DNA from: a virus
Lineage: Duplodnaviria > Caudoviricetes
Length of the DNA stretch: 64,000 bases
IMG/VR virus record: IMGVR_UViG_2561511107_000003
Span: 6,264-70,263 of that record
Strand: one strand, 5' to 3'
Shown here: piece by piece, positions 7,382-64,000 of the stretch
Numbering within the stretch: position 1 is the stretch's first letter
Layout of the letters: every line of letters begins with the position of its first letter
Made by a program: the position numbers and the translations under genes
Notes under the pieces: model-generated
Told to the model about the DNA's origin: nothing
The model's input: only the letters and a program-made list of their open reading frames with translations
Database searches by the model: none

Positions 7382-8556
7382 AAACCCGCATCGACCGAGA
7401 CCAGCTTGCTGACGTGGCCGGCTGGGTCGCCCGTAGCCTCCCCCAACGCCCCTCCGCGCCGGTGCTCGCCGGCATCAAACTCACCGCCGACGGTGCCACG
7501 CTCACCGCCGAGGGCTTCGACTACGAAGTCTCGACGCATGCCAGCGTGGCCACGCTCGGTGGCGAGCCCGGCACCGTGCTCGTGTCGGCGCGTCTCCTGT
7601 CAGAAATCGCCAAGGCGCTACCCAACAAGCCGGTCGACCTGGCCGCCGCCGGCACACACCTGGAACTGGTGTGCGGGTCGGCCCGGTTCACGCTGCCGAC
7701 GATGCCGGTGGAGGACTATCCGACCCTGCCGGCGATGCCGCAGCCGATCGGCTCCATCGACGCCGCAATGTTCGCGCAGGCAGTCACGCAGACGGCGGTG
7801 GCGGCAGGCAGGGAGGAAGCCCTGCCGATGATGACCGGGGTCCGCATCGAATTCGACGGCGACCGGATGGCGCTGCTCGCCACCGACCGGTACCGGCTCG
7901 TCGTCCGCGAACTGTCGTGGAAGCCGAACACAAACAATCTGTCAGCGCAGGTACTCATCCCTGCCAAGACGTTGACCGAGGTAGCGAAAGTCCTTGCCGC
8001 TGGCACCGACCCGATCACCCTCGCGTTGACGGCCGGAACTCCCGGCGAGGGTGTGATCGGCTTCAAGGCCGGCGGACGGCGTGTGACCTCCCGACTACTG
8101 GACGGGGCTAACTATCCGCCCGTCCGGTCCCTCCTCCCGAAGGAGGTGCACGCGTCGGCGCTCGTGCCGGCCGACGAACTCGTCCAGGTCGTGAAGCGAG
8201 TCGCGTTGGTGGCGGAACGCGCCACGCCGGTACTGCTCACCTTCACCCCCGGCGACACCGCACTGCTGGTGGAGGCAGGTGGTGCAGGGCAGGCCCGCGC
8301 CGCCGAGACAATGCCCATCGGTCACTACAAGGCCGGTGAGAGCATCACCATTGGATTCAACCCGCAATACCTGATCGACGGGCTGTCGCACCTCGGCGCC
8401 AGCCACGCCCTCATCGAAATGCTGGGCGCCTACAAGCCTGCCGTCATCTCCCCCGCCGGGGCGGCCAATGACAGCCAGTCAGGCAACGGCGAACCCGACG
8501 AACAGGAAACCCACCCCCACCGGTACCTGATCATGCCCATCCGGGTGACCCAATGA
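7378..8556 (+). CDS. dnaN: DNA polymerase III beta sliding clamp
   Basis: RPSAPVLAGI, FDYEVS, EDYPTLP, LATDRYRL, FNPQYLIDGL, YLIMPIR. Confidence 0.95.
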   Translation: MKTRIDRDQLADVAGWVARSLPQRPSAPVLAGIKLTADGATLTAEGFDYEVSTHASVATLGGEPGTVLVSARLLSEIAKALPNKPVDLAAAGTHLELVCGSARFTLPTMPVEDYPTLPAMPQPIGSIDAAMFAQAVTQTAVAAGREEALPMMTGVRIEFDGDRMALLATDRYRLVVRELSWKPNTNNLSAQVLIPAKTLTEVAKVLAAGTDPITLALTAGTPGEGVIGFKAGGRRVTSRLLDGANYPPVRSLLPKEVHASALVPADELVQVVKRVALVAERATPVLLTFTPGDTALLVEAGGAGQARAAETMPIGHYKAGESITIGFNPQYLIDGLSHLGASHALIEMLGAYKPAVISPAGAANDSQSGNGEPDEQETHPHRYLIMPIRVTQ

Positions 8557-19578: not shown

Positions 19579-19589
19579 GGGGTCATTGT

Positions 19590-21218
19590 ATGCGGATCCC
19601 GTTCACCGAAACTCGGCAGCTGCGCGCCGAGGTGCAGGAGCTTTCCACCGAACTCGCCCAGCAGGCCAACAGCAACCAGTTGCTCGCCGAGTCGGTCGCC
19701 GACCTTGAGCGGGCACTGAACGAGCCCGGATGGAGTCAGGCCCTCGCAACCGCCGACCGGGAGTTCACCGCCGAGGGACTCGTGCGGCTGCGGGCGATCT
19801 GCCGCCTGTACGCCATCAAGTCCCCGCTGATCCGCCGTGGCCTGAACCTGCGGTCGGCGTATGTGTGGGGCCAGGGCGTGGAGATCACCGTGCGGGCCAA
19901 CGGCCACCGCCACCCCGGCGAGCAGAACGTGCAGGAGGTCGTCAACGGCTTCCTCACCGACCCCACCAACGTTCGGGCGGTCACCGGCGCCGAGGCCCGA
20001 GACCAACTGGAGCATGCCCTCGGCACCGACGGCGAGTTGTTCTTCGCCCTGTTCACCCGCCCTCTCGACGGCCGGGTGCAGGTACGCACCATCGCCGCGG
20101 ACGAGGTCGTGCGTGTCATCTGCAACCCGGAGGATCGCTCCGAACCGTGGTACTACCAGCGGCGCTGGATCCGCGAGGTCTTCGACCCGGCGACCGGGCA
20201 TAGCACCCGCACCACCGTCGAGGGCTACTACCCGGCGATCGACTACCGGCCAGCCACCCGGCCCCGCCGTATCGGCTCCCACCCGGTGCACTGGGACGCA
20301 CCGGTGCTGCACGTGACGGTGAACCGGCCGCACGGCTGGCAGCGGGGCATCCCGGACGCGTACGCGGCAATCGACTGGGCGAAAGCGTACAAAGAGTTCC
20401 TCGAGGACTGGGCGAGACTCATGCGGAGTCTCAGCCGGTACGCGTGGAAGACCACCACCCCCGGCCGGAAGTCAGCCGCGGTCAAAGCGCGCGTGGCGCA
20501 GGCACCCGGCCGGGATCCATCAACCGGGGAACCGCAGCACGCCGGCGCCACGGTCATGCTGTCGCCGGACATGGGACTGGAGGCAGTCTCGAAGTCCGGT
20601 GCGACGATCGACGCGGATTCGGGCCGGCCACTGGCCACGATGGTCGCCTCCGCGCTGGACGTGCCCGTGACGATGCTGCTCGCCGACCCTGGGCAGACCG
20701 GAGCCCGCGCCACAGCCGAAACGCTGGACCAGCCAACCGAGCTGGCGATGGGACAGCGCCGTGACCTGTGGGCATCCTGGTACCAGCGGATCCTGCGCTA
20801 CGTCATCACCGAGGCGGTCCGCGCGGTCAACGGGCCGCTACGCGGGACCATCCGTCGGGACGCGTGGACGGGCAGCGAACAGGTGACCCTGGCCGCAGAC
20901 ACCGACCTGACGATCGACATCGTGTGGCGGGACCTCGATGACACGGACGTCGCCACGACAGTGCGGGCGATCAAGACCGCGTCGGACACGGGCACGGTGC
21001 CGCCTGAGGTGGTGCTGCGGCTGTTGCTGACCGCGCTCGGAGTGCGGCAGGTCGACGACATCGTGGGGCAGCTACTTGACGGTGATGGCGAGTTCATGTG
21101 GCCGAACGGTCCGCCGCTGGGTGGCGGGCAGTCAGCGGCGGACCGGCAACGCGCCGGCCAGGACCCGGCCGGCACCGGGCCGGGACGCATGACGCCCGAC
21201 GGTGACGCCGATCAGTGA
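19590..21218 (+). CDS. Portal protein
   Basis: Position after terL, 542 aa. Confidence 0.85.
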   Translation: MRIPFTETRQLRAEVQELSTELAQQANSNQLLAESVADLERALNEPGWSQALATADREFTAEGLVRLRAICRLYAIKSPLIRRGLNLRSAYVWGQGVEITVRANGHRHPGEQNVQEVVNGFLTDPTNVRAVTGAEARDQLEHALGTDGELFFALFTRPLDGRVQVRTIAADEVVRVICNPEDRSEPWYYQRRWIREVFDPATGHSTRTTVEGYYPAIDYRPATRPRRIGSHPVHWDAPVLHVTVNRPHGWQRGIPDAYAAIDWAKAYKEFLEDWARLMRSLSRYAWKTTTPGRKSAAVKARVAQAPGRDPSTGEPQHAGATVMLSPDMGLEAVSKSGATIDADSGRPLATMVASALDVPVTMLLADPGQTGARATAETLDQPTELAMGQRRDLWASWYQRILRYVITEAVRAVNGPLRGTIRRDAWTGSEQVTLAADTDLTIDIVWRDLDDTDVATTVRAIKTASDTGTVPPEVVLRLLLTALGVRQVDDIVGQLLDGDGEFMWPNGPPLGGGQSAADRQRAGQDPAGTGPGRMTPDGDADQ

Positions 21219-28650: not shown

Positions 28651-29271
28651 ATGAGCGACACCTCCGCGGGCGAACCCGCCGTACCCGCCACCTCCACCAG
28701 GGACCGAGTCCGCAACGCCCGCCTGCCAGAGCGCACCGTCGACGTGTGCCTGCGAGGTGACCTGCAGGCCGAGTGGGAGGACCTGCACCGGCAGCTCGCC
28801 GACGTTGAAGCCGCCGCAGCCAAGGACAAACGGCTCAACGGCGACAAGCATGCCCGCGGTATCGCGCAGCGCATCCTCGCCGTGCAGGACCGCATGCGTG
28901 AGGGAACGATAGTGTTCCGTATGCGTGGCCTGCCCGGTAAACAGTGGGATGCCCTACTCAAGGCACATCCTCCACGGCCAGACAACGACAGCGACGCGCA
29001 GCTGGGCTACAACACCGACGAGTTCATCGCCGCCCTCATCAAGACGTGCACGTACCTGCCCGACGACCTCGACGAGGACACCTGGCGGGAGCTGCTCGGT
29101 GACAACGACACCGAGCGGGCCCGCCGACAGCGAGCCAACCTGCCGGTAGAGGACGGCAAGCTGACCGAGTGGCAGCAACGGGAGCTGCAGGACGGCGCGC
29201 TGGCCGTGAACGTGCGGAAGGTCAACGTCCCAAACTCGTTCGCCGCCTCACGGCTGACCCGGTCCTCCTAG
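28651..29271 (+). CDS. Tail assembly chaperone (gpG)
   Basis: Between tail tube and tape measure; slippery site near the 3' end. Confidence 0.8.
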   Translation: MSDTSAGEPAVPATSTRDRVRNARLPERTVDVCLRGDLQAEWEDLHRQLADVEAAAAKDKRLNGDKHARGIAQRILAVQDRMREGTIVFRMRGLPGKQWDALLKAHPPRPDNDSDAQLGYNTDEFIAALIKTCTYLPDDLDEDTWRELLGDNDTERARRQRANLPVEDGKLTEWQQRELQDGALAVNVRKVNVPNSFAASRLTRSS

Positions 29272-29699: not shown

Positions 29700-29716
29700 C
29701 AGCCCGGGGGTGAGCG

Positions 29717-32700
29717 ATGGCCCGGCGAATTGCGGTGCAGTTCATCGCCGAGTTGACGCGATTCAGTCAGCAGATGCGCGGCGGCGCCGACGAGGTCCGC
29801 AAGGTCCGGCAGGAAGCGGTGGCCGCCCAGCGGGAGGTGACCGGGCTCGGCGCCGCCGGTGACACGGCGGGCCGACAACTCGGCGACGGGCTGGTGCGTG
29901 GCCTCGACGGCAGGATCCGCGACGCCCGCGGCCGGTTCGTAGGGGCCGGTACGCGGGCGGGCCGCGACTTCGGGGACGGTTTCGAGCGTGGCGCCCGCTC
30001 CGGTATCGGCCGGGTTGCGGGCATGCTCGCCGGCGCGGCGCTGCAAGCCAGCGGTTCGGCTGGCCGGGGACAATTAGTCGGCCTGGCGGCGATCCCCGCG
30101 ACGGCCGCAGCTGCGGCAGCGTCGTTGCAGGTGCTGCCGCCGCTGCTCGCTGCTGTCGGCGGTGGTCTGGGCGCGATCCCCGGATTGGCGGCGGGTGCGG
30201 CCGGGTCGATCGGCACCGTCAAACTGGCCACCGCCGGACTCGGCGACGCCATCGAGGAGGTGTTCGCCGACGACCGCGACCCCTACCTGCGGCTATCACG
30301 CAACGGGCAGCAGTTCGTGTCCGCGCTGGGCGCGCAGAAGCAGGCACTGCTGGGTTTGCGGTCGGTGGCGCAGGACCGCGTCTTTAGGGGCCTTGACGCC
30401 GAGGTCACCGAGTTGGCGGCGGTGGCGCTACCGTTCGCCCGCACCCAGGTTGAGCGTTTTGGTGACACATGGAACACCACATTCCGGCAGGCGGCAGCGC
30501 TCGGCCGGGACCAGCAGTTTCTGGCCGGGTTGAACAGCGCGTTTGCCTCCGCCGACGGGTTCTTCGACAAGGTGAACGCGCGCATTCCGGCGACCGGTCG
30601 GGCGCTGGGTGGCCTGTTTACCGGCAGCATCCCGTTCGTCGACCAGTTCGGCGACAGCCTGCTGGAGTACGTGGACGACTTCAACGCGTGGATCGAGCGC
30701 ACCAGCAGGTCCGGCCAGTTGCACATGTTCTTCCGGGATGCCGGGCAGCAGGCCGACGCGCTACTTGATCTGACCCGCGAAATCTTTGTCCTTGTCGGCC
30801 GGATCGGCAGTATGGGGCAAGGCTCCACTCTGCTGCGGGACATGGCCGACGCCGTGGAACGGTTCAACGCCGAGGCACACAACATGCGGTCGGTGGAAGG
30901 GATCATCCGCACCGGCAACGAGGCCATCGCCGGCGTTGTCGATGTGCTGGTGGTGCTCGGCGAAACCCTCGGGAGCACGCTCGCCGATCCGGGCACCGCC
31001 GCGGCCGTCGCCTTGTTCTTCGACGTGCTCAAAGTGGGGGCGCAGATCGTCGGCGGGTTGGCGCAGGTGTTCGGGCTGCTGCCCGACCAGATTCAGGCCG
31101 CAGTGCTGGCCGGCGCGGCGCTGGCCATCGTCGCCGGGAAACTGAGCAAAGCCTTCGGTAAGGCGCACCTTGCCGTCGGTGGATTCACCGACCGGCTGCG
31201 GCAGACCGGCCCGTCGGGTGTGCAGGCCGCTGAGGGGATCGGCAAAGCCGAGCGTGCCATCGGCCGGCTGGTTGTCGCCATGGCGGCCTTCCAGGTCGGG
31301 TCCGCCGCCTTCGGGTCGACCCTCAACCCGCAGGTCGACGCCCTGTCCAGCCGGCTGAAAGAGTTCGCCCGCGACGGTGAGGTGGCCGGTGAGGCGGCCC
31401 GCGTTTTCGGCGGGGACATGGACAAGCTGGAAACGGCGATCAAGGATGTCGCGGACACGGGCGCCTGGTCCGACTTCGCCCGGGGCGCCGCCGGTTTCAT
31501 CGAGGGCATCACCGGGTTGGGGAACGTCGTCGATGACAGTCTCACCAGGTCGCGGGAGCGGATCTCGGCCCTCGACTCGGCGTTGACGGACATGGTGGCC
31601 GCCGGTGGGATGGATCAGGCCCGGCAGGCTTTCGACCGGATCGCCGAGTCGGCGGCCCGGCAGGGCGTGTCCACCCGCGAGTTGATGGCCGTCCTGCCCG
31701 GCTACGCGGCGGCTTTGGAGAAGGCGAAGGCTGCCGGGGATGGGCAGGCGCAGGCAACGGCCGCGGCGGAGCAGCGGACTCGGCTGCTGGCCGGGTCGAT
31801 GCAGGACACGATCACCGCGATGGGCTCGTACACGCGGGCGTGGGAGGTGCTGAACGGCGCCCAGTTGACGGCGGACGAGGCGGCTCTAGCGGCGAAGGAC
31901 GCCATTGATCAGGTGACGCAGTCTTTCGCGGACAACACCGACACGGTGACCGGCAACAGTCGGGCCGCGCTGGAGAACCGAATCGCGGTCGGGCAGGCCA
32001 CGCAGGCGGCTGCCGAAGCAGCGCAACGCAAGTACGAGGAAACCGGTTCGATTATCGAAGCTACCGCGACGTACGACTCGTACATCGGCGCGTTGCGGCG
32101 CACCCTGCGGCAGACGGCCCTGACGGACGCCGAAATCGAAGGGCTGCTGGCGTCGTACGCGCAGATGCCACCAGTCGCGCAAACGCAGGTGTCGGCGCCC
32201 GGCGCGGCTGGCGCGACACAGCAGGCAACCGGTTTCTACAGCGCGCTCAAGCGGCTACCCGACGGCAAGTTGGTGCGGGTGAATGTGCGCGGTGTCGAGT
32301 CAGCCATCAGCCGAGTGGATCGGCTGCAAGCCGAGGTCAGGGCCTTGACGGGCAAAACCATCCGTATCGGGGTGGTCGGCGGACGGGGCGGGCACCTCGA
32401 ACAGCGGTGGGGCGGCTACCACGAGCGCGGCGGCGGATGGACGAAGGCCGCGGTCGGCCTGCTGCGGGAGGCGGCTGTCTACCCGGCCCGCTATCCCGGC
32501 CGGTACATGATCGCCGAACCGGAAACGGGTGGTGAGGCATTCATTCCGTTGCGCGGTGACCATCGGCGCAGTGTTTCCATCGCCCAGAAGGCGATGGACC
32601 ACTACGGCATGGCAGTCGTTCCGAAGTCAGTGGTCGCGGCCGGTCAGCGGGCGATGGCGGCAATGGCGGCGTCCGCGCAGGCGGGACCGGCGTCGGGGCC

Positions 32701-32818
32701 GGTGACCTACGACAACCGGATCAGCGTCCACCCTCAGCGCGCGGATTTCACCCTGACCGATCTGGAGGCCCTGGAGGCCCGCCGGGATGCACAAGCGCGG
32801 GTAGGAAGGCCCCGATAA
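29717..32818 (+). CDS. Tape measure protein
   Basis: 1033 aa Ala/Gly-rich helical protein; EPETGGEAFIPL motif. Confidence 0.93.
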   Translation: MARRIAVQFIAELTRFSQQMRGGADEVRKVRQEAVAAQREVTGLGAAGDTAGRQLGDGLVRGLDGRIRDARGRFVGAGTRAGRDFGDGFERGARSGIGRVAGMLAGAALQASGSAGRGQLVGLAAIPATAAAAAASLQVLPPLLAAVGGGLGAIPGLAAGAAGSIGTVKLATAGLGDAIEEVFADDRDPYLRLSRNGQQFVSALGAQKQALLGLRSVAQDRVFRGLDAEVTELAAVALPFARTQVERFGDTWNTTFRQAAALGRDQQFLAGLNSAFASADGFFDKVNARIPATGRALGGLFTGSIPFVDQFGDSLLEYVDDFNAWIERTSRSGQLHMFFRDAGQQADALLDLTREIFVLVGRIGSMGQGSTLLRDMADAVERFNAEAHNMRSVEGIIRTGNEAIAGVVDVLVVLGETLGSTLADPGTAAAVALFFDVLKVGAQIVGGLAQVFGLLPDQIQAAVLAGAALAIVAGKLSKAFGKAHLAVGGFTDRLRQTGPSGVQAAEGIGKAERAIGRLVVAMAAFQVGSAAFGSTLNPQVDALSSRLKEFARDGEVAGEAARVFGGDMDKLETAIKDVADTGAWSDFARGAAGFIEGITGLGNVVDDSLTRSRERISALDSALTDMVAAGGMDQARQAFDRIAESAARQGVSTRELMAVLPGYAAALEKAKAAGDGQAQATAAAEQRTRLLAGSMQDTITAMGSYTRAWEVLNGAQLTADEAALAAKDAIDQVTQSFADNTDTVTGNSRAALENRIAVGQATQAAAEAAQRKYEETGSIIEATATYDSYIGALRRTLRQTALTDAEIEGLLASYAQMPPVAQTQVSAPGAAGATQQATGFYSALKRLPDGKLVRVNVRGVESAISRVDRLQAEVRALTGKTIRIGVVGGRGGHLEQRWGGYHERGGGWTKAAVGLLREAAVYPARYPGRYMIAEPETGGEAFIPLRGDHRRSVSIAQKAMDHYGMAVVPKSVVAAGQRAMAAMAASAQAGPASGPVTYDNRISVHPQRADFTLTDLEALEARRDAQARVGRPR

Positions 32819-39696: not shown

Positions 39697-39795
39697 CCCT
39701 GCCGAACCAGCCATACCCGCCGGTGGTGGTGACTCGGGGGCACCACCACCCGGCGGACACCCTTCAGATACCCCTCGGTTGACGCGGGAGAGCTG

Positions 39796-40533
39796 ATGAC
39801 TGCCTGGACTGTGCACCACGGTGACGCCCTGACGATCCTGCCCACCCTGCCCGCCGCGAGCGTCGATCTCGTGCTGACCGACCCGCCATACAACTCCGGC
39901 GGCCGTACCCAATCCGACCGGACCAAGGACACCGCCCGCAACAAATACGTATCCGGCGACGCCGCCCATCAGCTGCGGGATTTCGTCGGCGACAACCGCG
40001 ACCAGCGCTCCTACACCGCCTGGCTGTCGCTGATCCTCGCCGACTGCCTCCGCGTCTCGAGGCCCGGCGCATCACTGCTCGTGTTCACCGACTGGCGGCA
40101 GTTGCCGGCCACCAGCGACGCCCTACAGGCCGGCGGCTGGCTATGGCGCGGCATCATCTGCTGGCACAAACCCATCTCCCGCCCGCGTGTCGGCGGGTTC
40201 AAAGCCGACTGCGAGTACATCCTGTGGGGCTCGCACGGGCCGATCGACGCCACCCGCAACCCCGTCTACCTGCCCGGCCTCTACAGCGCCAGCCAGCCCC
40301 GCGGCAAGGGCAGGCAGCACATCACCCAGAAACCCGTCAGCCTGCTCGCCGACCTGGTCAGGGTATGCCCGCCCGGCGGCACGATCCTCGATCCGTTCGC
40401 CGGCTCCGGCTCCACCGGCGTTGCCGCCGTCGACGCCGGCCACCCGTTCGTCGGTATCGAGGCCAGCGCCCACTACGTCCAGATTGCACGACAGCGGATC
40501 ACCGATGCCACCACCCAGCACACGCCCGGGTAG
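39796..40533 (+). CDS. N6-adenine/N4-cytosine DNA methyltransferase (beta class)
   Basis: TDPPY, HITQKP, LDPFAGSGST. Confidence 0.93.
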   Translation: MTAWTVHHGDALTILPTLPAASVDLVLTDPPYNSGGRTQSDRTKDTARNKYVSGDAAHQLRDFVGDNRDQRSYTAWLSLILADCLRVSRPGASLLVFTDWRQLPATSDALQAGGWLWRGIICWHKPISRPRVGGFKADCEYILWGSHGPIDATRNPVYLPGLYSASQPRGKGRQHITQKPVSLLADLVRVCPPGGTILDPFAGSGSTGVAAVDAGHPFVGIEASAHYVQIARQRITDATTQHTPG

Positions 40534-51302: not shown

Positions 51303-51349
51303 TGTAAGGCGCCTTGCAATCCACTGCAAGGCGCCTTACACTTTTGGGT
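51303..51349 (+). promoter_or_regulatory. Promoter with a double palindromic operator
   Basis: TTGCAA-17-TACACT; TGTAAGGCGCCTTGCA and its perfect inverse 6 bp apart. Confidence 0.8.
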
Positions 51350-52189
51350 ATGGATGATGCTGACAACGTTCCGCCCGTGTTCCGTTCCCTCGTGGACCGA
51401 CTCGGTCCGCCCGTGCCGGTGGAGGACGCACGATCCCGGTGGGCCGAACTGGTGGCGGCGGCCGAGGCCGGCACGGCCACCCTGATCACCCGCGACGGCC
51501 GGGAGTGGGTCGCACTGGTACCGATGGCCGAGGTGGCCGAGCCGGTCGCCTGGATGCCGATGTGGCCGCTGTCGGAGGCCCGCGCCAAGCTCGGCGACGT
51601 GATCCACGAGAGTCACGCCAGGACTCAGGTCCTCACCCGGCACCGGAAGCCAGTCGCCGCAGTCATCGACGCCACCGTGCTTCTCGACCGGCCAACCCCG
51701 GCGGACCGACTCCCGGCCGAGACGTTGTTGGACGCCGGCCGGCGGATCGTGCTGGAAGGTGACCCCGGCGCCCCGGGCCGGATGGACTTCGACGGAGAGG
51801 TCACCGAGCAGTCGGAGCCGGCGTGCTACACGGCCACGGCCGTGAACCGGGACGGCACGACTGTCGCAGTCGGTGTCGGCCCATCGCTAGGGGAGGCGCT
51901 GCTGCGCCTGGCCGCGCCCACCGAGGGCACGCCGGTCATCTGGTCAGTCATGCGCGGCGAGTCACCGAACGCAGCTGCGGTCGAGCCGCAGATGATCGGT
52001 GTAGACATTCCGTTGCAAGTCCTGGCCTGGGCCGAGGCTCACGGGATGACCGAGGACGACCCGGACGTGTACCTCCTCATCGCCCCGGCCGACGGAGCCC
52101 GCCCGTTCGATGGCGAGTTGGCGACCAGGATGGACGTGCTACCTCCAGAGACGGTGGCGCAGATCGAAGAGGCGATCACCAACGCCTAG
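51350..52189 (+). CDS. Tandem Phd/YefM antitoxin-like domain protein
   Basis: EDARSRWAELV...ITRDGREWVALVP and SEARAKLGDVI...LTRHRKPVAAVI. Confidence 0.75.
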   Translation: MDDADNVPPVFRSLVDRLGPPVPVEDARSRWAELVAAAEAGTATLITRDGREWVALVPMAEVAEPVAWMPMWPLSEARAKLGDVIHESHARTQVLTRHRKPVAAVIDATVLLDRPTPADRLPAETLLDAGRRIVLEGDPGAPGRMDFDGEVTEQSEPACYTATAVNRDGTTVAVGVGPSLGEALLRLAAPTEGTPVIWSVMRGESPNAAAVEPQMIGVDIPLQVLAWAEAHGMTEDDPDVYLLIAPADGARPFDGELATRMDVLPPETVAQIEEAITNA

Positions 52190-52203
52190 TTGGCCAAAGG
52201 AAA

Positions 52204-52233
52204 GACCCCCGGCTCGGCGGCGAGCCGGGGGTC
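52204..52233. terminator. Stem-loop terminator
   Basis: GACCCCCGGCTCG GCGG CGAGCCGGGGGTC. Confidence 0.7.
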
Positions 52234-52423
52234 GCCCGCGCGAAACGGGCAAGCGCGCTCGATGGTGTCCGTTGGACGAACCCACACCTCGGCCAGCTCG
52301 ACCATCGTTGCCATACCCGCCGAGAGGCCGTCAGTGATCATGATGCCTGGAGTTGTTTTTGGTCTGGAAACTACGGGCGGGCCATGCTGACACCGGCCAG
52401 CGTCGGAAGGCGGCAGGTCGGCA

Positions 52424-53098
52424 TCACACACCTCCCAACAGGTCGGCGAGCAGGTCCCGGTGGGCCGGGAAAACGGGGCCGGCGTAAACCTCGGCCAGAT
52501 ACGAGGCGAGCTGGTCGTATGTGTCGCAGGGCACCCACGCGGCACGGCGGGCGTCGTCCTGGCCAGTCACGTCGGGTAGGTGGAGCCAGCCGGACCCCAG
52601 GTCGATCCGCACGGGGGTGGTGACCATCCACGCCTCGTCGGATGCGCGGGGGTCGGGCACGACCCGGGCCGGCAGCGTCGTAACCCACGGGTCGGCGGGG
52701 TTGGCGACCAGCGCGGCACCCTCGGTCAGCTCCCGGAACGCGGCGGCGAGGGCGGTTTCGCCGGGGTCGACGTGCCCGCCGGGCAGCGCCCACCCGAACC
52801 CGTCGCCACGCTCGATCAGCAGCAGACAGCGCGCCCCGTCGATGTCCCTGGCGGTGACGATCGCGTCGGCGGCCTGCGCCTCGCCCCAGTGGCCGAGGCG
52901 GTTACGGCCGTAGCGGATGCCGGTCGGCGGGGCCGGCGCGACCGGCCGCCCGTCAACGACCGCGAAGGGAATCGCTGCTCGGCGCTGTCTTTCGGCCCAG
53001 TCGATGACGGTGGGGTCCATGATCGGGTCGGCCCACGACTTGCCGGCGGCGATGCCGGCCAGGACGGACGGGGCGGTGTAGGTGCGGTCAGTGCTCAC
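52424..53098 (-). CDS. Nudix hydrolase (NUDT9/ADP-ribose pyrophosphatase-like)
   Basis: GRNRLGHWGEAQAADAIV, WALPGGHVDPGE...RELTE, DPRASDEAWM, GQDDARRAAW. Confidence 0.88.
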   Translation of the reverse strand: MSTDRTYTAPSVLAGIAAGKSWADPIMDPTVIDWAERQRRAAIPFAVVDGRPVAPAPPTGIRYGRNRLGHWGEAQAADAIVTARDIDGARCLLLIERGDGFGWALPGGHVDPGETALAAAFRELTEGAALVANPADPWVTTLPARVVPDPRASDEAWMVTTPVRIDLGSGWLHLPDVTGQDDARRAAWVPCDTYDQLASYLAEVYAGPVFPAHRDLLADLLGGV

Positions 53099-53303
53099 GG
53101 CTACCTCCGGTCGGGGCGGTCGGATGGGCGGAATCCGGCATCAGTGATTGGGTTTCGGCATCGCGGGTGGGGCAGTTCTGCGGACAGACGTCCACGGTGG
53201 TGTCGGTGTCGCACACGCACACGGCCGCCGAGGGCTGGTAGCGGACCCGGCGGGGGCGACGGCCGTACGACGCCGCCCCCGCCTGAAAGTCAGCCCGACT
53301 CAT
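53088..53303 (-). CDS. Small Cys-containing protein
   Basis: CVC...CPQNC; coupled ORF. Confidence 0.45.
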   Translation of the reverse strand: MSRADFQAGAASYGRRPRRVRYQPSAAVCVCDTDTTVDVCPQNCPTRDAETQSLMPDSAHPTAPTGGSREH

Positions 53304-57928: not shown

Positions 57929-58089
57929 GTCAAACCCCTAACTGTCTTATGACAGCAGGCTACGCGCATGTAAGGGCCGCCTTGTCCGGACGGTACGGAC
58001 AAGCTTTGCCGCGCCGCCAGCTTGCACGTCCTTCGCCATGTAAGCACTTACAGCTTGACCTGCATGTGACAGTAAGGAATGATCAGGTC

Positions 58090-58338
58090 ATGGAGCTAAG
58101 CGAAATCATGCTGCTCGTCGAAGCCCACAAGAAGGCTCGCAGTGGCGACGCAAAGAAGATCCGGCGACGCGCCGGACTGACCATGGCCCACGTAGCCGCC
58201 GTCGTTGGCGTCAGCGAATCAACCGTCAGCCGATGGGAGGGCGGTTCCCGCAAACCACGAGGCGAACACGCACTCAGGTGGGCCGCCCTGCTCAACGAGC
58301 TGGAGCGCGCGCAGGCCGAGCCGGTCGCAGCCGCCTGA
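58090..58338 (+). CDS. XRE HTH protein
   Basis: GLTMAHVAAVVGVSESTVSRWEGG; TTGACC-17-AATGAT leaderless promoter. Confidence 0.85.
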   Translation: MELSEIMLLVEAHKKARSGDAKKIRRRAGLTMAHVAAVVGVSESTVSRWEGGSRKPRGEHALRWAALLNELERAQAEPVAAA

Positions 58339-58342
58339 ACCA

Positions 58343-59563
58343 ATGACCGACCCCCGACCGAACGGGCGTTGGTTTCGGGACATCTACCGCGATGCCGTGT
58401 GGGAGTCCGAGGAACTGACGGCCCAAGAGAAGGCCGTCGCCGAGACGTACGCACGGCACGCACGCGACGAACACGACGACAAGAGCGCAACTGCTGACCT
58501 CGCGTGGACGACCTACCCGCGACTCATGGCCAAGGCGGGCATCGGGCGGCGAGCGAATGTGAGCACCGCCGTCGCGAGCCTGGTGAGGAAGGGGTGGCTG
58601 ACCGTGGTCCGTGAGGCGAGTCGACGGCCGACCCTCTATCGCCTAACGATTCCCGTCGGTGGTTTCGATGGTGGAACTACCAGCCAGGCGAGCCGTAGTT
58701 CCGATGACGGTACTACGGTAGTTCCGAGACCAGCAGCTGGTAGTTCCACTTCCGCCGCCGGTAGTTCCGATGGCGGAACGCAACCATTAGGACCATTAGA
58801 AAATCAACCACTAGCCTCTCTCTCTGACGCTCGCACATCAGTGCCCGTACCTAGCGTGCTCAACGACGACCGAGAGAGAGACGAGAAGTCTTCAACCAAA
58901 GACCCCAACCCCATCGGGCCGCTACAGCGATTCGTCATCAAGCGCGGCGCACCTCAACACCTCGCCACCCAGGTAGTCGAGTTCATCGAAGCCGCCAACG
59001 CCATCGACGGATTTGGCTGGTGGATCACCGCCAGCGGCAACGGCACCCTCGCCGCGCAGGTAGCCACCGCCCTCGACGCGTTGGCCGCACCAATCGGAGG
59101 CGACAACCAGGACGACTGTTCGACGTGCGGTGACACGGTGCTATCAGTTCCCGGACACGCCGACTCACGGGGCGATGAGGGGGTGAGTTACGGGGTAACT
59201 GGTTCCGCTGCGCCTACCCAGCACCAACCCCCTTCCTCCCCCACCGTCGAACCTGACGCCTCGCCGCGCTCCGACAGGCAGGAGAAGACGAGAGCAGACC
59301 TCGCCATCATGGCTACCGCCACCCGCCTCGCCGACCCCTACCAAGGCGACATGACCGTCATCGAGTCGCGACGCCTGGTAAGCCACGTCGTCACCGTGCT
59401 CGCCAAGGGATGGTCGGAGCAGGTCGTAGCGGACGCACTGGCCACCGACGTCGCCGGCCTCGACTCGGTTGCCGCTGGTCTGATCGGGCGGATGATGGAA
59501 CTTGCGGCCACCCCTGTCCAACCGGGCCGCGACGAAACGTTGCTGCCGAGATGCATCGCCTAG
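58343..59563 (+). CDS. Second replication-initiator-like HTH protein with internal iterons
   Basis: LAWTTYPRLMAKAG...LVRKGWL...PTLYRLTIP winged helix, then a repeat linker. Confidence 0.65.
   Translation: MTDPRPNGRWFRDIYRDAVWESEELTAQEKAVAETYARHARDEHDDKSATADLAWTTYPRLMAKAGIGRRANVSTAVASLVRKGWLTVVREASRRPTLYRLTIPVGGFDGGTTSQASRSSDDGTTVVPRPAAGSSTSAAGSSDGGTQPLGPLENQPLASLSDARTSVPVPSVLNDDRERDEKSSTKDPNPIGPLQRFVIKRGAPQHLATQVVEFIEAANAIDGFGWWITASGNGTLAAQVATALDALAAPIGGDNQDDCSTCGDTVLSVPGHADSRGDEGVSYGVTGSAAPTQHQPPSSPTVEPDASPRSDRQEKTRADLAIMATATRLADPYQGDMTVIESRRLVSHVVTVLAKGWSEQVVADALATDVAGLDSVAAGLIGRMMELAATPVQPGRDETLLPRCIA
58658..58808. repeat. GTAGTTCC(GATGGYGGAACTAC) iteron-like repeats plus ACCATTAG x2, putative origin 2
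   Basis: Five copies or half-copies, followed by an AT-richer patch. Confidence 0.65.
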
Positions 59564-59590
59564 CCGTCGGCGTACCGCTACCATGCCGTC

Positions 59591-60100
59591 ATGGCCGACG
59601 GACCGGACCCTGGATCCGAACACGGGGCAGCCTTCGCCCGCCTCCTGCGGGTGCAACGGGCCAAACGCGGCCTACGCCAACAAGACGTCGCCGACGCCTC
59701 CGGTGTCTCCCTGCACACCATCATGCGATGGGAAACCGGCCAAAGCCGGCCACCCCAGCCCGCACAAGTCCGCGCCATCTGCCACGCCCTCGGCATCAAC
59801 CCTCTCGAGGTGGCCGTTGCCCTCGGCTACCTCGGCGAGGACGAAGCCCCGCCCAGTACAGACTTCGCTCGGCCCACCATCGCAATCAAAGTCGGCGAGC
59901 ACCACCACGGACCTTCCCGCGGCGAAGAAGGCTTCGCCTACCGGTCCCTCGCGCGCCGCAGACTCGCCGATGCCCTCGGCATCGAAAAGCCTCCGACGCT
60001 CAGCCCCGAGGAGCAGCAGAAGCTGCGTGAGGCTGAGGCACGCGCCGAGCGCGACGCAGACCGGATCTACGGAGACCACGCCGGCCAGGCTGTGGCGTGA
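59591..60100 (+). CDS. XRE HTH protein, putative antitoxin
   Basis: GLRQQDVADASGVSLHTIMRWETG; GTGA-coupled to the PIN gene. Confidence 0.8.
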   Translation: MADGPDPGSEHGAAFARLLRVQRAKRGLRQQDVADASGVSLHTIMRWETGQSRPPQPAQVRAICHALGINPLEVAVALGYLGEDEAPPSTDFARPTIAIKVGEHHHGPSRGEEGFAYRSLARRRLADALGIEKPPTLSPEEQQKLREAEARAERDADRIYGDHAGQAVA

Positions 60101-60456
60101 GACCCCGCATCCTCGACACGTCGGCGATCATCGCCCTGTTCGACGCCTACCCGCCGGTGTTCGACCTGATAGCGAGTGCGGAGGTCAACGAGGCGACCAT
60201 CGTTCTGCCGGCAGCTGCCGTCGCCGAAGCGAACCGGAAGATCCGCGGATCGTTCGGCGTGTGGGAGCCGGTCCTCTTAACTGCCGGGCTGACGGTTATG
60301 CCGCTCGATCCTCATGTCGCTATCGAGATTCACGACCTGGTCGGCGACGTGGCTACTCGGCACACCGTGTACGAGGCGCGGCTGTTGCGTGGTGTGGTGG
60401 TGACCTGCGACCCGGGCGTGTATCGGGGGCACACGGTTCCGCTGCTGGTCGTCTGA
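60097..60456 (+). CDS. vapC: PIN-domain (VapC-like) protein
   Basis: ILDTSAIIAL, AVAEA, VVTCD. Confidence 0.75.
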   Translation: MRPRILDTSAIIALFDAYPPVFDLIASAEVNEATIVLPAAAVAEANRKIRGSFGVWEPVLLTAGLTVMPLDPHVAIEIHDLVGDVATRHTVYEARLLRGVVVTCDPGVYRGHTVPLLVV

Positions 60457-60557
60457 CTCGTATTAGTTCCCGCCCGGCCTCTTCAGAGGGGCTGGATGAC
60501 CTTGCCTGCCCTGGCCGTCTCACACGGGCCGACCCGACCACCACCAGGAGGACACCC

Positions 60558-60893
60558 ATGACCGACCCGATCGACCTCGACGTCCCCGCCGAGGTTACTG
60601 AATTCACCAGCCTGCTCCGCGCCCGCCTTACCGGTGTCTACGACGACGACAACCCGGCCGGGAAGTCCCCCGCCGAAGCCCTGTGGAAGGAGGTCCACGG
60701 CACCTCACAGCTGGAAGCGGGCAGCATGCAGGAACTCGCAGACAAGGTTGGTGATCTGCTGGCCGTTAAGCGAAACATCGCGGTTGTGGTGGCCGTGGCG
60801 CTTGCCATCGACCTGGCCAAGCAGACGGGCCGTTCCGCCATCGACCACATCGACGACGTGGAGCAGTCGCTGATCGAAGGACAACAGCAGTGA
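60558..60893 (+). CDS. Acidic hypothetical protein
   Basis: AGGAGGA RBS. Confidence 0.7.
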   Translation: MTDPIDLDVPAEVTEFTSLLRARLTGVYDDDNPAGKSPAEALWKEVHGTSQLEAGSMQELADKVGDLLAVKRNIAVVVAVALAIDLAKQTGRSAIDHIDDVEQSLIEGQQQ

Positions 60894-60914
60894 CTCACCC
60901 GTCGCACCGCCGGT

Positions 60915-61373
60915 CTAGCCGATCGTGAGCCGGATGGTGGTGTTCAGCTGCGCATCGTCAAACTGGATTTTGCCGCGCCGGCCCACCTCGACGCCGTAGA
61001 ACCGGTCGCCCTCCGGCACCCCCGTCACCTCGAACGGCATCTCGCACACCTTGAACGGCTCCCCCAACTCGGGATCCGCCCGGACTTTGCCGAGTTCGAG
61101 TGTGCCGACGCCTGCGGTCTTGCCACCGCTGTCCGTCACCACCACCTGCGCGCCGGGGGTGAGATCGTCCCAGCCGCGCTGCGACAGACTGCCGCCGTGG
61201 CAATCCAGGCCAACCTCCCAGCCGGACGGCCAGCCCTGGATGGCCATGGTGCCGGTGATGGTGCGGGTGGACGGGCTGGAGGCGGGCGTATCGGCGGGTT
61301 CGGGGCTGCTGCTGCAGGCGGCGAGCAGCAGCACGATCGCCGCGGCGGCGGGTATGGCGTGGTGTAGGCGCAT
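60915..61373 (-). CDS. Lipoprotein
   Basis: Signal peptide with LAAC lipobox; DL.PGAQVVVTD, FYGVEVGRRG. Confidence 0.8.
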   Translation of the reverse strand: MRLHHAIPAAAAIVLLLAACSSSPEPADTPASSPSTRTITGTMAIQGWPSGWEVGLDCHGGSLSQRGWDDLTPGAQVVVTDSGGKTAGVGTLELGKVRADPELGEPFKVCEMPFEVTGVPEGDRFYGVEVGRRGKIQFDDAQLNTTIRLTIG

Positions 61374-61701
61374 CGTGGCAGTCTCGACCATGCGGTACGT
61401 GCCGTGGACCCGCACGACCGGCCAGTATCGCTGTCGCCTACACGACTCAGGGGATCGTGTCGATGGGTGGCGGGTGCAGGTGACGGCGGAGCGGAGACAA
61501 GCGTGTCCGTAGCCCAAATCCAACGCAGCTCTGGGTGTCGTACCGTCCGTCTACCCTGGGGTCCGCTGGCCCGCCTTTGCCCCCGTGAAGGCGGGCCGGT
61601 GTACGTCGACCCAACTTCGTGGGACGGCCTACGCGGTCGTTATGACAGCTAGGACGGCCCGAGGCCAAGAGGACCGGGCTCGCCGACTGGGAGGTGAGGC
61701 G

Positions 61702-62418
61702 ATGATCAGCGTCGTCGGTGTCGCGTCCCGCCGGGGCACCCGCGACCACAACGCGGACGCCGGCCACGCCTACCGAGGCGACGACGGCACCGTCGTCGCG
61801 GCGGTCATCGACGGCACCGGCAACTCAGCCGAGCTGGCCGAGCTGGCCGACGCGATGGCGATCGTCGTCGCCCGCGTCGGGTACCGGCGCGGCGGTCTCG
61901 CCGCTCTCATCACCGCCTCCGACCTGATCCACGAGGCCCACGACGCCGCTGCCGTCACGGTCCGGGTGGATCCCGACGGCGGGGTCCACACCCACTGGAT
62001 CGGCGACTGCCGCGCCTGGTGGTGGACCGGTGCCGAACTGCGTCAGCTCACCACCGACCACACCATGGGCCAACTCCTGCGCGTCTCCGGCGGTGAGTCC
62101 GCCGCCCGGGTCGCCGCCACCCACGACCACTGGCTGCGCCTGGGTATCAGCGGTGCCACCCCCGCCACCGTCGCCGAGGTGAGCGGGCTCGACGTCGACA
62201 GCACGACGCTGGGCGTCGGCCAGCTGGTCCTGCTCACCTCCGACGGGGTCCACGACCAGCTCGACCAGGACACCATGCTCGAGCTGGTCGTGGCCCACGC
62301 CGCCGTTCCGCAGAGCCTGGCGGACGCACTGGTCGCCACCGCGAGGCCGGATCACCGGGGCTACCGGGATGACGCCACCGCGGTCGTCGTGGCGATGACC
62401 GCGGTGGCGCACGAATGA
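61702..62418 (+). CDS. PP2C/PPM-family Ser/Thr protein phosphatase
   Basis: R..NAD, VIDGTG, IGDCR, LTTDHT, LTSDGVHD, DDATAVV. Confidence 0.9.
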   Translation: MISVVGVASRRGTRDHNADAGHAYRGDDGTVVAAVIDGTGNSAELAELADAMAIVVARVGYRRGGLAALITASDLIHEAHDAAAVTVRVDPDGGVHTHWIGDCRAWWWTGAELRQLTTDHTMGQLLRVSGGESAARVAATHDHWLRLGISGATPATVAEVSGLDVDSTTLGVGQLVLLTSDGVHDQLDQDTMLELVVAHAAVPQSLADALVATARPDHRGYRDDATAVVVAMTAVAHE

Positions 62419-62426
62419 TCCGGTCC

Positions 62427-62462
62427 CAACGACGGGTGCGCCGGCGCACCCGTCGTTGGTTT
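62427..62462 (+). terminator. Intrinsic terminator
   Basis: CCAACGACGGGTGCG CCGG CGCACCCGTCGTTGG TTT. Confidence 0.75.
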
Positions 62463-62507
62463 CGGTGCGAGCGTGGACACCGAACCGCACGCCGCGCTAT
62501 CGGTCAC

Positions 62508-62596
62508 GCACGCCCCGCCCACGCGGGGGTGATCCGTCGCTAAGCACTCGGTGGGTGCGGACGCAGGGTCGACTTGTCCCCGCCACGCGGGGTAGA
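62508..62596 (+). CRISPR. Type I-E-like mini-array A (repeat, 36-nt spacer, degenerate repeat)
   Basis: GCACG CCCCGC CCAC GCGGGG GTGATCCG (29 nt) and CTTGT CCCCGC CAC GCGGGG. Confidence 0.7.
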
Positions 62597-62640
62597 CGAC
62601 AGCGCCCCGCCTGGCCTCACGGCCAGGCGGGGCGCTGTCG
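62597..62640. terminator. Bidirectional terminator (GGCC-TCAC-GGCC family, copy 2)
   Basis: Perfect 20-bp stem with TCAC loop. Confidence 0.8.
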
Positions 62641-62651
62641 CGTGTGCGGGG

Positions 62652-63053
62652 TCAGCGGCGGCCGGAGCGGATCTGATAGAGCCGGGCCGGCGTCACGCCG
62701 GCGGCTGCAGCAATGTCGTCTCGCCGCAGCTCAGTCCGCTGCATTGCCGTCCGCACCAGCTCGTCGCGGCGGGCGGTCAGGCGGCCGATCTCGCTGGTCA
62801 CCTCCTCCAGCTCCACCAGTATCCGGGCGGCGGCCGTGGCGACGGCTCCGACACTGTACGACGCGTCAACTGCACGGGTGATCACGCCGACGCCGGCCGG
62901 AGTGAGGGTGCGGGTCGCGATGTCCCACAGCTCCGGGTCGTCGCGGATCTCATCCACATGCACCCGCACCGTGTCGACGGCAGCAGCGTGGGTGTCTATG
63001 CCGTGGTGGTCGGCGAGGGTCCGGGCGAGATCGTCAATGCTGGTTCTGGTCAC
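62652..63053 (-). CDS. Protein with C-terminal HTH
   Basis: GGAGGA RBS; RDDIAAAAGVTPARLYQIR. Confidence 0.8.
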   Translation of the reverse strand: MTRTSIDDLARTLADHHGIDTHAAAVDTVRVHVDEIRDDPELWDIATRTLTPAGVGVITRAVDASYSVGAVATAAARILVELEEVTSEIGRLTARRDELVRTAMQRTELRRDDIAAAAGVTPARLYQIRSGRR

Positions 63054-63081
63054 CGCTTCCTCCTGTGGCTTGGATACCATG

Positions 63082-63122
63082 AGCCTATAGCCTGCTATAG
63101 CTATATGTCAAGCACGCTATAG
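63082..63122 (-). promoter_or_regulatory. Promoter overlaid with CTATAG palindromes
   Basis: TTGACA-18-TAGGCT on the minus strand; CTATAG x3 plus CTATAT. Confidence 0.7.
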
Positions 63123-63205
63123 AACAGCGATGGTGTGGGCCTGCCACAATGACCCGCCCCCTGCGGGGCCTGACAGCCGAGACGCTTGGGGGTACGCTCC
63201 GTTCA

Positions 63206-63278
63206 TTGGTCCCCGCGCAGGCGGGGATGACCCACTGTCGCTTCGCGACATGCTCCCCACGCATGTGGGGTTAGGGAC
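63206..63278 (+). CRISPR. Type I-E-like mini-array B (repeat, 15-nt hairpin spacer, variant repeat)
   Basis: TTGGT CCCCGC GCAG GCGGGG ATGACCCA and ATGCT CCCCAC GCAT GTGGGG. Confidence 0.75.
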
Positions 63279-63285
63279 CACGCAA

Positions 63286-63329
63286 ACGACGCCCGCCCGG
63301 CCGTGAGGCCAGGCGGGGCGCTTCGTCGT
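63286..63329. terminator. Bidirectional terminator (GGCC-TCAC-GGCC family, copy 3, inverted)
   Basis: GCCCGGCC GTGA GGCCAGGC stem. Confidence 0.75.
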
Positions 63330-63337
63330 GCCTGGCG

Positions 63338-64000
63338 TCAGCGAGGGACTCCGTGCACGAGGTAGTTCAAAGGCACCACCACCCAGGTGCCGGGCTCGTC
63401 GACTCGCTCTACCTCCAACTCGCCAGCATCGTTGAGCCGTGCGTCTGGTCGCAGCGCCTGCACCTCGTCGAGGTTGTCGCCGGTCCACATGACCGCCTGC
63501 TGTGTTGACCTTGGTCGGCCTGGTTTGCGTTGCCAGCCGGCGGCGAACGCGTCGATGCTGCTCCGGGTGTATACGGGGCCGGCGGCCAGCCGGGCGACCG
63601 GGTCCGGGAACGCCTCGTTCTCCCGGGCGAGTTGCTCGACTCGCTGCCGTGACACGTTGAGGATTCGGGCGATCTCGGCGTTGCCGACGAGGCTCATCGG
63701 GTGTGGTCGGGAGATCTCCCGTTCGTGGTCCTCGGCGGTGATCACGCGTAGGGCGGTGACCTCGGGTGCGCTGCCGATTGCCTGGCTGTGCGCGGTGCGG
63801 GCCGCGCGGGCGGCCGTGTCGGCGGCCTGGCGGACGGTGGGCGCTTCGATGGTCATCTCCAGGCGTACCCGGTCGACGCCGGTGTCGACGATGATGCCGT
63901 AGCCGGGTAGGACGCGGGTGATCTCGGCGAGTTGGTCGTCGGTGGGCTGTGCGCTCCAACGGCGAATGGTTACGGCGGCGTGCCACTGTTGGGGTGTCAT
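63338..64000 (-). CDS. AlpA/excisionase-like HTH protein (possible antitoxin); start lies at the window edge
   Basis: LVGNAEIARILNVSRQRVEQL...FPDPVARLAAGPVY. Confidence 0.75.
   Translation of the reverse strand: MTPQQWHAAVTIRRWSAQPTDDQLAEITRVLPGYGIIVDTGVDRVRLEMTIEAPTVRQAADTAARAARTAHSQAIGSAPEVTALRVITAEDHEREISRPHPMSLVGNAEIARILNVSRQRVEQLARENEAFPDPVARLAAGPVYTRSSIDAFAAGWQRKPGRPRSTQQAVMWTGDNLDEVQALRPDARLNDAGELEVERVDEPGTWVVVPLNYLVHGVPR

Follow-up and report, generated by a model that had tools for sequence, protein, structure and literature searches.

Regulatory mini-arrays resembling CRISPR (short palindromic repeats, clustered and regularly interspaced) have been described in phages between 2023 and 2026, and two small CRISPR-like units, called here unit A (62513-62592, + strand) and unit C (core 63211-63270, + strand; 63152-63270 with a possible degenerate first repeat), are the subject of this work. 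They are found in a 64-kb window, the whole stretch of DNA that was analysed, which corresponds to bases 6264-70263 of the 70,263-bp provirus record IMGVR_UViG_2561511107_000003. In the reading that we favour and consider reasonably probable, unit A encodes a viral regulatory RNA similar to a CRISPR RNA (crRNA), that is a phage regulatory mini-array or "Cracr", probably acting as an RNA anti-CRISPR, and unit C is a related product of the same tool-kit. A first-pass annotation of this DNA had presented the locus as a candidate for an undescribed system; this has to be given up, since phage regulatory mini-arrays (PMC10120712) and Cracrs (10.1101/2024.10.29.618823) already cover type I-E and Actinomycetota.

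In the phage mini-arrays described by Shmakov et al. 2023 (PMC10120712), the seed is common to the host mini-arrays and the sequence diverges after it; an unresolved case from Micromonospora/Saccharomonospora phages is also mentioned. The name Cracr is that of Liu et al. (bioRxiv 10.1101/2024.10.29.618823), who list 219 candidates found in RefSeq and IMG/VR, with I-E and Actinomycetota ones among them, and whose criterion is that at least 9 spacer bases proximal to the protospacer adjacent motif (PAM) are common with a host CreA/CreR. According to the same preprint, an I-E Cracr array of a Salmonella prophage was demonstrated by experiment to lower casA transcription and to restore phage growth; its spacers are 24 and 21 nt long and its last repeat, with a one-base loop deletion, is poorly processed. 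For the host elements concerned, the I-E CreR/CreA, a 2023 preprint of Liu et al. (10.1101/2023.03.10.532045) and Shmakov et al. 2023 (PMC10120712) give these characteristics: the first repeat retains its handle, the match extends over about 15 nt, the PAM is AAG and the position is 5' of casA.

Unit A, its guide and the host counterpart

Unit A is composed of a repeat-like element, a spacer-like stretch and a second repeat-like element, followed by a terminator (T1). The first element (62513..62536) is the hairpin CCCCGC-CCAC-GCGGGG with the 8-nt 5' handle part GTGATCCG. The spacer-like stretch (62537..62572) has 36 nt, of which the first 17, TCGCTAAGCACTCGGTG, are the conserved guide part and the remainder is particular to this variant. 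The second element (62573..62592) is CTTGT plus the hairpin CCCCGC-CAC-GCGGGG, with a 3-nt loop and a 3' flank that is not handle-like. Set beside a canonical array, with at least three identical repeats, a regular period, diverse acquired spacers and usually a leader and adaptation genes, unit A differs in having non-identical elements, a period of 65 bp and a spacer that is conserved between records. The exact motif CCCCGC-N4-GCGGGG-RTGAYCC has two matches in the window, at 62513-62535 and 63211-63233, both on the + strand, and none in 100 dinucleotide-preserving shuffles of it; a looser form with at most one mismatch (four matches vs a shuffle mean of 2.9) is not significant alone. Chance hairpins were ruled out, because the exact motif is absent from the 100 shuffles and the hairpins are identical to host repeats. 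No cas gene was found in the window (tblastn with seven I-E Cas proteins of the genome G002, no match at E <= 0.01). What the first-pass annotation had described here, two cas-less I-E-like units each ending at a strong hairpin with a convergent gene, is thus really present.

The provirus is best explained as a temperate Salinispora phage, whose variable accessory arm forms the right end of the window. A 22-nt terminator motif has four matching stretches in 185,579 species genomes, all four in Salinispora; in a genome-wide scan with the PP2C-like protein encoded 5' of unit A, none of the 170 pattern stretches was confirmed. I-E repeats with a 61-bp period are present in three of the four motif-bearing genomes and Cas6e in two of them (G002, G004), and cse1 and cas3 were confirmed in G002. 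The host repeats are CTGCT-CCCCGC-ACAC-GCGGGG-GTGATCC and CTCGT-CCCCGC-ACGC-GCGGGG-GTCTTCC; from the former, hairpin 1 of unit A with its handle differs by one loop base, the stem being identical to the I-E repeats of G002 and G003. The handle agrees with the Salinispora I-E repeats in 7/8 bases, and the eighth base is variable in host arrays. The host lineage, Salinispora, does possess I-E systems, and their repeats are near-identical.

The phage is also under CRISPR pressure. When 161 spacer intervals from host-lineage arrays (15 loci) were compared with the window, two spacers, both from the genome G039, matched perfectly, one over 30/30 nt in the portal gene (21107-21136) and one over 32/32 nt (29236-29267), each with an AAC flank, and further spacers match related proviruses. 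The PAM is AAC in three of the five protospacers inspected, GAG in one and AGC in one. From these matches, the phage group reads as a live target of Salinispora CRISPR. In the survey of Wietz et al. 2014 (PMC4223832), I-E systems were reported in 49/75 Salinispora strains, together with self-targeting spacers directed at resident prophages.

The first 17 nt of spacer A, with positions 6, 12 and 15 left open, were searched in the four Salinispora genomes, giving 29 mostly scattered matches vs 6 for the reversed control. Two of the matches are 110 bp apart in G004 (contig C60), between the cas3 stop and cse1 and about 4.7 kb from cas6e. The first is part of a mini-array resident in the host, with the cas genes on the other strand. 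This array consists of the hairpin CCCGGC-TCAC-GCTGGG, its handle GTCTTCCC and a spacer with TCGCTGAGCACCCGGTG at its start; a second hairpin, CCCTGC-CCAT-GCGGGG, lies at a distance of 61 bp from the first. The other match, TCGCTAAGTACACGGTGGG, stands directly after AAG. In its minus-strand reading, this site occupies the -35/spacer region just 5' of a conserved TACGAT -10 box, and a GTG 6-7 nt past the box opens an open reading frame (ORF) of 126 aa running towards cse1, which is probably leaderless. The host module formed by mini-array, target and ORF (G004:C60 ~7350-7935, or L048 989-1570; also L065 and L066) lies between cas3 and cse1. It was found whole in three of 275 genomes belonging to one GTDB genus group (species representatives only), namely G004, G039 (94%) and G147 (70%). 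Among the three, the first 26 spacer nt are invariant, the PAM is AAG, AAG and AAC, respectively, and the first hairpin of G147 carries a compensating change. The module retains the handle in its first repeat, has a match of about 15 nt next to an AAG PAM and lies 5' of casA; as far as sequence can tell, this is the anatomy of an I-E regulatory mini-array of the CreR/CreA type.

Over the first 17 nt, spacer A and the spacer of the host mini-array are identical at 15, the differences falling at positions 6 and 12. This guide is found in nine distinct units, two host-type and seven on mobile elements (A in the window; B, E, E' and F in proviruses; B' in G003; D in G199), and the arrays recur in eight further provirus records retrieved with two proteins and array patterns. 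Across the nine units, only positions 6 and 12 vary within positions 1-17, with three states each, plus position 15 in one unit; from about position 18 onwards the units are wholly different. The distance between hairpins is 61 bp in 8/9 units and 65 bp in unit A. In type I Cascade, the bases at positions 6, 12 and 18 are flipped out of the duplex of guide and target. The same flipped-out positions are noted by Shmakov et al. 2023 (PMC10120712). Variation of the kind seen in the nine units is the signature of a Cascade guide. As to the earlier expectations, the handle is indeed conserved in homologous loci, but the spacers are not simply variable, their 5' part being fixed across units. Against the G004 target, unit A matches at the PAM-derived base and at positions 1-8, 10-11, 13-17 and 19. 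The conserved guide, the host mini-array and the PAM-flanked target are the reasons for considering unit A a viral crRNA-like regulatory RNA, and the best-fitting of the options first listed for it is accordingly a CreA/CreR-type guide to a promoter, here the PAM-flanked cas3-cse1 site. An attC/integron-like role for the hairpins was rejected in view of the PAM-flanked target of the guide part.

The same conservation bears on whether the units are non-functional relics, that is fragments of host arrays or mini-arrays gained by recombination and decaying in the prophage. The degenerate repeat flanks, the one 3-nt loop and the odd spacings would suit such an origin, as would the decayed orphan arrays known in the lineage (G138, G089) and the two unit-bearing genomes in which Cas6e was not found. 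We consider it improbable, because the guide substitutions of the nine variants are almost all at the non-pairing positions 6 and 12, the parts retained (handle after hairpin 1, stem of hairpin 2) are the minimal needs of a crRNA, and the units stand between a promoter-like block and a terminator in many mosaic contexts. All six stem positions are paired in every listed hairpin, although the listing took in only hairpins with six pairs; two elements have fewer, in E/E' the third hairpin (GTGAGG) and in unit C the possible first repeat, with 5 pairs. The promoter-like block, TTGAGC..TAYRSY, ends 7-8 nt 5' of hairpin 1 in 4/5 other aligned units (B, E, E', F), and a terminator follows the units.

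Viral mini-arrays also have a known role in conflicts between viruses (cited in Shmakov et al. 2023, PMC10120712), in which their spacers would steer the host Cascade against competing phages for superinfection exclusion. C0 and C1 of unit C and the second spacer of B and F, which have no assigned target, would leave room for it. For the present units such a role is very improbable: the spacers lack diversity and are fixed in their 5' part; a search of 2.9 million viral contigs with the guide part returned only the arrays themselves and one chance match lacking an AAG/AAC PAM; and blastn of 58000-64000 against a phage database of 50,697 records gave no match.

Two further observations concern related arrays. 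A second guide, starting GTCGTNGGCCG, follows a CCCCAC-type hairpin in B, B' and F (L014 7416-7492, L029 1580-1656, L115 1987-2063); its position 6 varies too, and no target was found for it. In G199 (C1 ~148,850-149,020; L084 1420-1600), a three-hairpin array with the shared guide (unit D) adjoins an FtsK/SpoIIIE-like gene and an XRE-family regulator, a context that suggests an integrative conjugative element rather than a phage.

Unit C and the two repeat families

Unit C begins with TTGGT, the hairpin CCCCGC-GCAG-GCGGGG and the handle ATGACCCA (63206..63234, + strand), continues with a short spacer-like stretch of 20 nt, C1 (63235..63254), which contains the 5-bp hairpin GTCGC-TTC-GCGAC, and ends with a second element (63255..63278) consisting of the hairpin CCCCAC-GCAT-GTGGGG (63255-63270) and TTAGGGAC. 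Further 5', a possible degenerate first repeat with five stem pairs, ACCCGC-CCCCT-GCGGGG (63152-63168), lies 59 bp from the hairpin at 63211 and is followed by CCTGACAG and a 29-nt spacer-like stretch, C0. This whole segment (63152..63205, + strand) is shared by the window and one other record and is missing from two other C-type records. Arrays with the stem CCCCAC..GTGGGG are present in 18/275 genomes with their own cas3-to-cas1 operon and represent a second family of I-E repeats; the hairpin at 63255-63270 is therefore a repeat of that family, so that the unit, judged by its stems, mixes hairpins from two host I-E families. The repeat pair first annotated here is I-E-like as claimed, with the corrections that its second member comes from a different family and lies 44 bp away, and that an extra degenerate hairpin is found 59 bp 5'. 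With periods of 59 and 44 bp and non-identical repeat-like elements, unit C is not a canonical array.

Neither PAM-proximal sharing with a host CreA/CreR nor a PAM-flanked target in a cas locus, either of which would make unit C a Cracr by comparison, was found in the 275 genomes and eight loci. Searches with C0 in five genomes gave ten matches, all with one mismatch and scattered. For C0, C1, D0 and the second spacer of B/B', nothing convincing was found in the loci examined, and self-targets of the spacers within the window were none better than 3-4 mismatches in 15-17 nt. Unit C may thus be a short-spacer guide, that is a Cracr for an unsampled I-E variant, or a decoy for Cas proteins.

The second possibility is inspired by the Racrs, repeat mimics found in viral genomes (Camara-Wilpert et al. 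2023, PMC10651486). The hairpins and handles would bind Cas6e, Cas5 and Cas7 and form aberrant complexes with no target. As an explanation of the locus this is unlikely, and it is the leading alternative for unit C. In this unit the Cas6e-type hairpins are only 44 bp apart in 4/4 provirus records in which it was found, neither a target nor a host counterpart of it came to light among the 275 genomes, and its spacer folds as a 5-bp hairpin in which both substitutions seen are a loop change or a G.U pair. Moreover, in G199 the guide is preceded by an analogous element, composed of a hairpin, a small hairpin and a CCCCAC hairpin, in which the hairpin sequence is different. Like Racrs, the window units are phage-encoded repeat mimics without cas genes, and unit C has no recognisable target; Racrs as presented in that paper (PMC10651486) are solitary and lack a target-matching spacer, whereas the guide of unit A has a host target and unit C has two hairpins instead of one, both with stems from host I-E families. 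For unit A, the conservation of the guide at 15 pairing positions and the PAM-flanked host site favour guiding. None of the array families found has the handle of unit C (0/275 genomes), which would weaken mimicry too, and the validated I-E Cracr spacers are themselves short, 21 and 24 nt (Liu et al., bioRxiv 10.1101/2024.10.29.618823), so that shortness alone is no proof of a decoy.

A possible guide to the host cas locus

Unit A displays every sequence-level property of the Cracrs, being virus-encoded outside a cas locus, with host-like repeats and handle, at least 9 shared PAM-proximal bases and a PAM-flanked partial target, and is therefore placed in this known class. The likeness extends to the order of repeat-like, spacer-like and repeat-like parts on a prophage, with several units per element, to a spacer whose PAM-proximal part recurs in a host mini-array of the CreR/CreA type before the sequences diverge, to a PAM-flanked target in a cas intergenic promoter, and to a last repeat with a shortened loop. 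Differences are also evident. The prophage units considered here are known from sequence alone, whereas the published I-E Cracr is validated by experiment; the host target is the promoter of a small ORF 5' of cse1, not an evident casA promoter; the window units mix hairpins of two I-E repeat families; the spacer of unit A is longer than canonical, not shorter; and the units are scattered between genes, each with its own terminator, instead of forming one array. As in CreR/CreA, the first repeat-like element keeps the handle, the second the hairpin, and 15-19 nt or so match a promoter beside an AAG PAM, as in the host element between cas3 and cse1 of G004, G039 and G147. Those host mini-arrays are inside the CRISPR-cas locus, whereas the window units are on a prophage with no cas genes nearby and are copies or mimics, not a resident regulator.

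According to the mechanism that we propose, the small CRISPR-like RNA genes of the accessory arm would be transcribed independently and would exploit the type I-E Cas proteins of the host. Unit A would be transcribed from a promoter immediately 5' of it, for which a putative sequence, TGGACA, 18 nt and TATCGG, is found at 62474..62503 (+ strand), ending 9 nt 5' of hairpin 1. Cas6e would cut the RNA at the stem base of hairpin 1 and, with lower efficiency, at hairpin 2, and the processed RNA, whose 5' end would be the 8-nt handle GUGAUCCG, could load into Cascade as a crRNA-like RNA. Its spacer would pair over about 17-19 nt with the PAM-flanked site in the host cas3-cse1 intergenic region, which is also the presumed target of the CreR/CreA-like mini-array of the host. 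With such partial pairing, Cascade would bind and block transcription without recruiting Cas3 for cleavage, tightening the repression of the promoter of the 126-aa ORF, which probably reads on into cse1. The RNA would also compete with defensive crRNAs for the Cas proteins, and the net effect would be that of an RNA anti-CRISPR. Unit C, whose hairpins are those of the two I-E families present in the host lineage, would be either the short-spacer guide or the decoy considered above.

Several points weigh against this reading. Sequence relations, the PAM, the position-specific conservation and the CRISPR pressure on the phage are shown here; transcription of unit A, its processing, its loading into Cascade and the repression are steps that we infer, and a search for RNA sequencing runs containing the stretch listed none. 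A strict sigma-70 scan over 62300-63500 found no promoter. The geometry of the unit is non-canonical, with hairpins 65 bp apart vs 61 and a 3-nt loop in hairpin 2, and its processing may be poor given this spacing and loop; both the loop and the spacing are corrections to the first-pass annotation. The guide has mismatches at pairing positions of the target, at 9 in G004, 3 and 9 in G039 and 11 in G147, position 3 being in the seed. At least four of five substitution events fall in 2 of 17 positions, for which a rough binomial P of 9e-4 is only indicative because the nine guide units are related by descent. The promoter of the 126-aa ORF that the site would cover and the leaderless start are putative, read from the sequence, and the read-through into cse1 is at best probable. 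Neither Cas6e nor the target was found in G003 and G199, the two species genomes with mobile-element arrays, and for the provirus's own host the I-E system and the target are putative, being known from related genomes. As for unit C, its pattern occurs in the 275 genomes at chance level (6 matches vs 7 in the control, none with hairpins), no array carries its handle ATGACCC in any of them, no target was found in the eight loci examined (six of them cas loci; species representatives only), and the two substitutions seen among its copies, a loop change and a G.U pair that keep the small hairpin, are not confined to positions 6/12.

The position of the target on the promoter of the 126-aa ORF, and not directly at cse1, brings in a different possibility, namely that unit A mimics a CreA antitoxin and silences a toxin, the 126-aa ORF, that safeguards CRISPR, at a time when other phage factors disable CRISPR; the RNA would then be an anti-anti-CRISPR. 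The ORF is conserved as a protein (51% identity between G004 and G147, with a common stop) and has a hydrophobic C-terminal stretch. ORF, target and mini-array together behave as an insertion of about 380 bp relative to G002, which retains the second hairpin only. A protein toxin repressed by CreA, CreP, is known for type I-F (Shu et al., 10.1101/2024.01.05.574328), and I-F Cracrs silence the CreT toxin (Liu et al., bioRxiv 10.1101/2024.10.29.618823). By analogy with CrePA/CreTA, in which a small gene within the cas locus is under a Cascade-guided repressor RNA, the host module may be their I-E analogue; in the account of Shu et al. (10.1101/2024.01.05.574328), these are described for I-F (CreP) and I-B (RNA toxins), whereas the present case is I-E and its ORF has no known family. 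We hold the toxin alternative to be rather unlikely. Pfam and NCBIfam matches of the ORF are all below cut-off, it has five relatives, one of them named "hypothetical protein", protein atlas scores are below 0.9 and give no lead, and its AlphaFold2 model is poor, with a predicted local distance difference test (pLDDT) score of 50.5. In addition, the ORF is frameshifted in G039, its toxicity is putative, and no anti-CRISPR protein was identified beside the arrays.

Mosaic surroundings and the meaning of the units

Units A and C are located at the extreme end of the accessory arm, which extends from 40 kb to the end of the window. The record has an estimated CheckV completeness of 74% and the window a G+C content of 68.7%. 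Phage genes occupy about 7-40 kb, with a sliding-clamp-like protein, the portal protein (19488-21218), the tape measure protein (29714-32818), a cell-wall-binding lysis protein and a DNA methylase; in the phage database, the portal protein has only distant actinophage relatives, with less than 60% identity. The accessory arm encodes large proteins of no known family, Phd/YefM-domain and NUDIX proteins, a GntR/UTRA regulator, an XRE-PIN pair, a lipoprotein and a PP2C/SpoIIE-like protein. The genes for the N6/N4 DNA methylase and for the Phd/YefM-domain and NUDIX proteins (39733-40533; 51308-53140) may be further anti-defence or addiction genes. At 59591-60456 lies an XRE-family helix-turn-helix (HTH) gene of 169 aa, which overlaps with the beginning of an ORF of 119 aa that has a weak PIN match (E = 0.003, below cut-off); the pair resembles a toxin-antitoxin, and the corresponding place in related proviruses is taken by mini-array B. 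A tRNA scan of the window found none, Rfam at gathering thresholds gave no match over the whole window, and tblastn of the PP2C-like protein against the phage database was empty.

Directly 5' of unit A is the PP2C/SpoIIE-like phosphatase gene (61585-62418, + strand; phrog_5650, E = 3.5e-58), which in two related records sits between mini-arrays B and A. It is divided from unit A by its own terminator (62426..62459, + strand), a perfect 17+17-nt palindrome followed by TTGGTTT, the sole terminator-like site returned by the terminator scan. Unit A is followed by T1 (62597..62640, both strands), with a perfect 20-bp stem and the 4-nt loop TCAC, and unit C by T2 (63286..63329, both strands), which is akin to T1 in inverted orientation (44 nt, 84%). 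The 142-aa gene (62652..63080, - strand), divergent from unit C, ends just past T1 and probably encodes a DNA-binding protein with a C-terminal HTH; the 220-aa gene (63338..64000, - strand), whose start codon is in the last bases of the record, converges on T2 and has weak excisionase/MerR-like HTH matches. Convergent minus-strand ORFs at the two hairpins had been correctly annotated, and their HTH identity depends on weak matches, with E values of 0.018 and 0.011 in Pfam, which are below cut-off, and of 4e-5 and 3e-4 for PHROG. The divergent intergenic region between the 142-aa gene and unit C (63081..63150) contains three CTATAG-containing repeats (63081-63125), which may be operators or promoters for both. 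Other C-type records have a different divergent gene, ribbon-helix-helix-like by eye, and at the corresponding site their own repeated motif, operator-like.

Blastn homology between provirus records stops exactly at T1 and T2, which appear to serve both as bidirectional terminators and as the places where mosaic modules of related proviruses join. Closely similar hairpins, rich in GC (core GCCCCGCCTGGCC-TCAC-GGCC..), terminate many unrelated provirus genes (L003, L004, L005, L007, L009) and coincide with homology breaks. Relatives of both the 142-aa and the 220-aa gene keep the terminator with no repeat nearby in three loci (L003, L004, L009). The arrays adjoin other genes elsewhere: in one related record 2 kb are inserted between unit A and the 142-aa gene, another is without unit A and most of unit C, and in shorter records the arrays are 3' of lysis and methylase genes. 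Because homology breaks at the terminators, relatives with the terminator only exist and arrays stand beside other genes, the recurring module of repeat pair, hairpin and convergent HTH gene that had been proposed does not hold; the association is a chance neighbourhood of mosaic modules, not a conserved unit.

A more far-reaching proposal, of which we are doubtful, is that the mobile elements of Salinispora and Micromonospora possess a modular kit of hybrid RNAs, joining hairpins from two I-E families that circulate together to small hairpins of variable sequence, in which unit C would be a new kind of structured, target-less I-E decoy and unit A would disarm a hitherto undescribed I-E CrePA-like module, with a protein toxin guarded by Cascade. 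If true, such a kit could explain the tolerance of prophages that are targeted by the spacers of the Salinispora strains themselves. With unit A understood, as we favour, as a viral crRNA-like regulatory RNA, the locus provides a sequence-level example, in an actinomycete I-E system, of a phage turning the CRISPR self-regulation of the host against the host, and a testable explanation for several self-targeting Salinispora spacers with matches in resident prophages (Wietz et al. 2014, PMC4223832). It draws attention, too, to a small ORF that Cascade would control in I-E loci and to the two-hairpin RNA of unit C, which possibly works differently.

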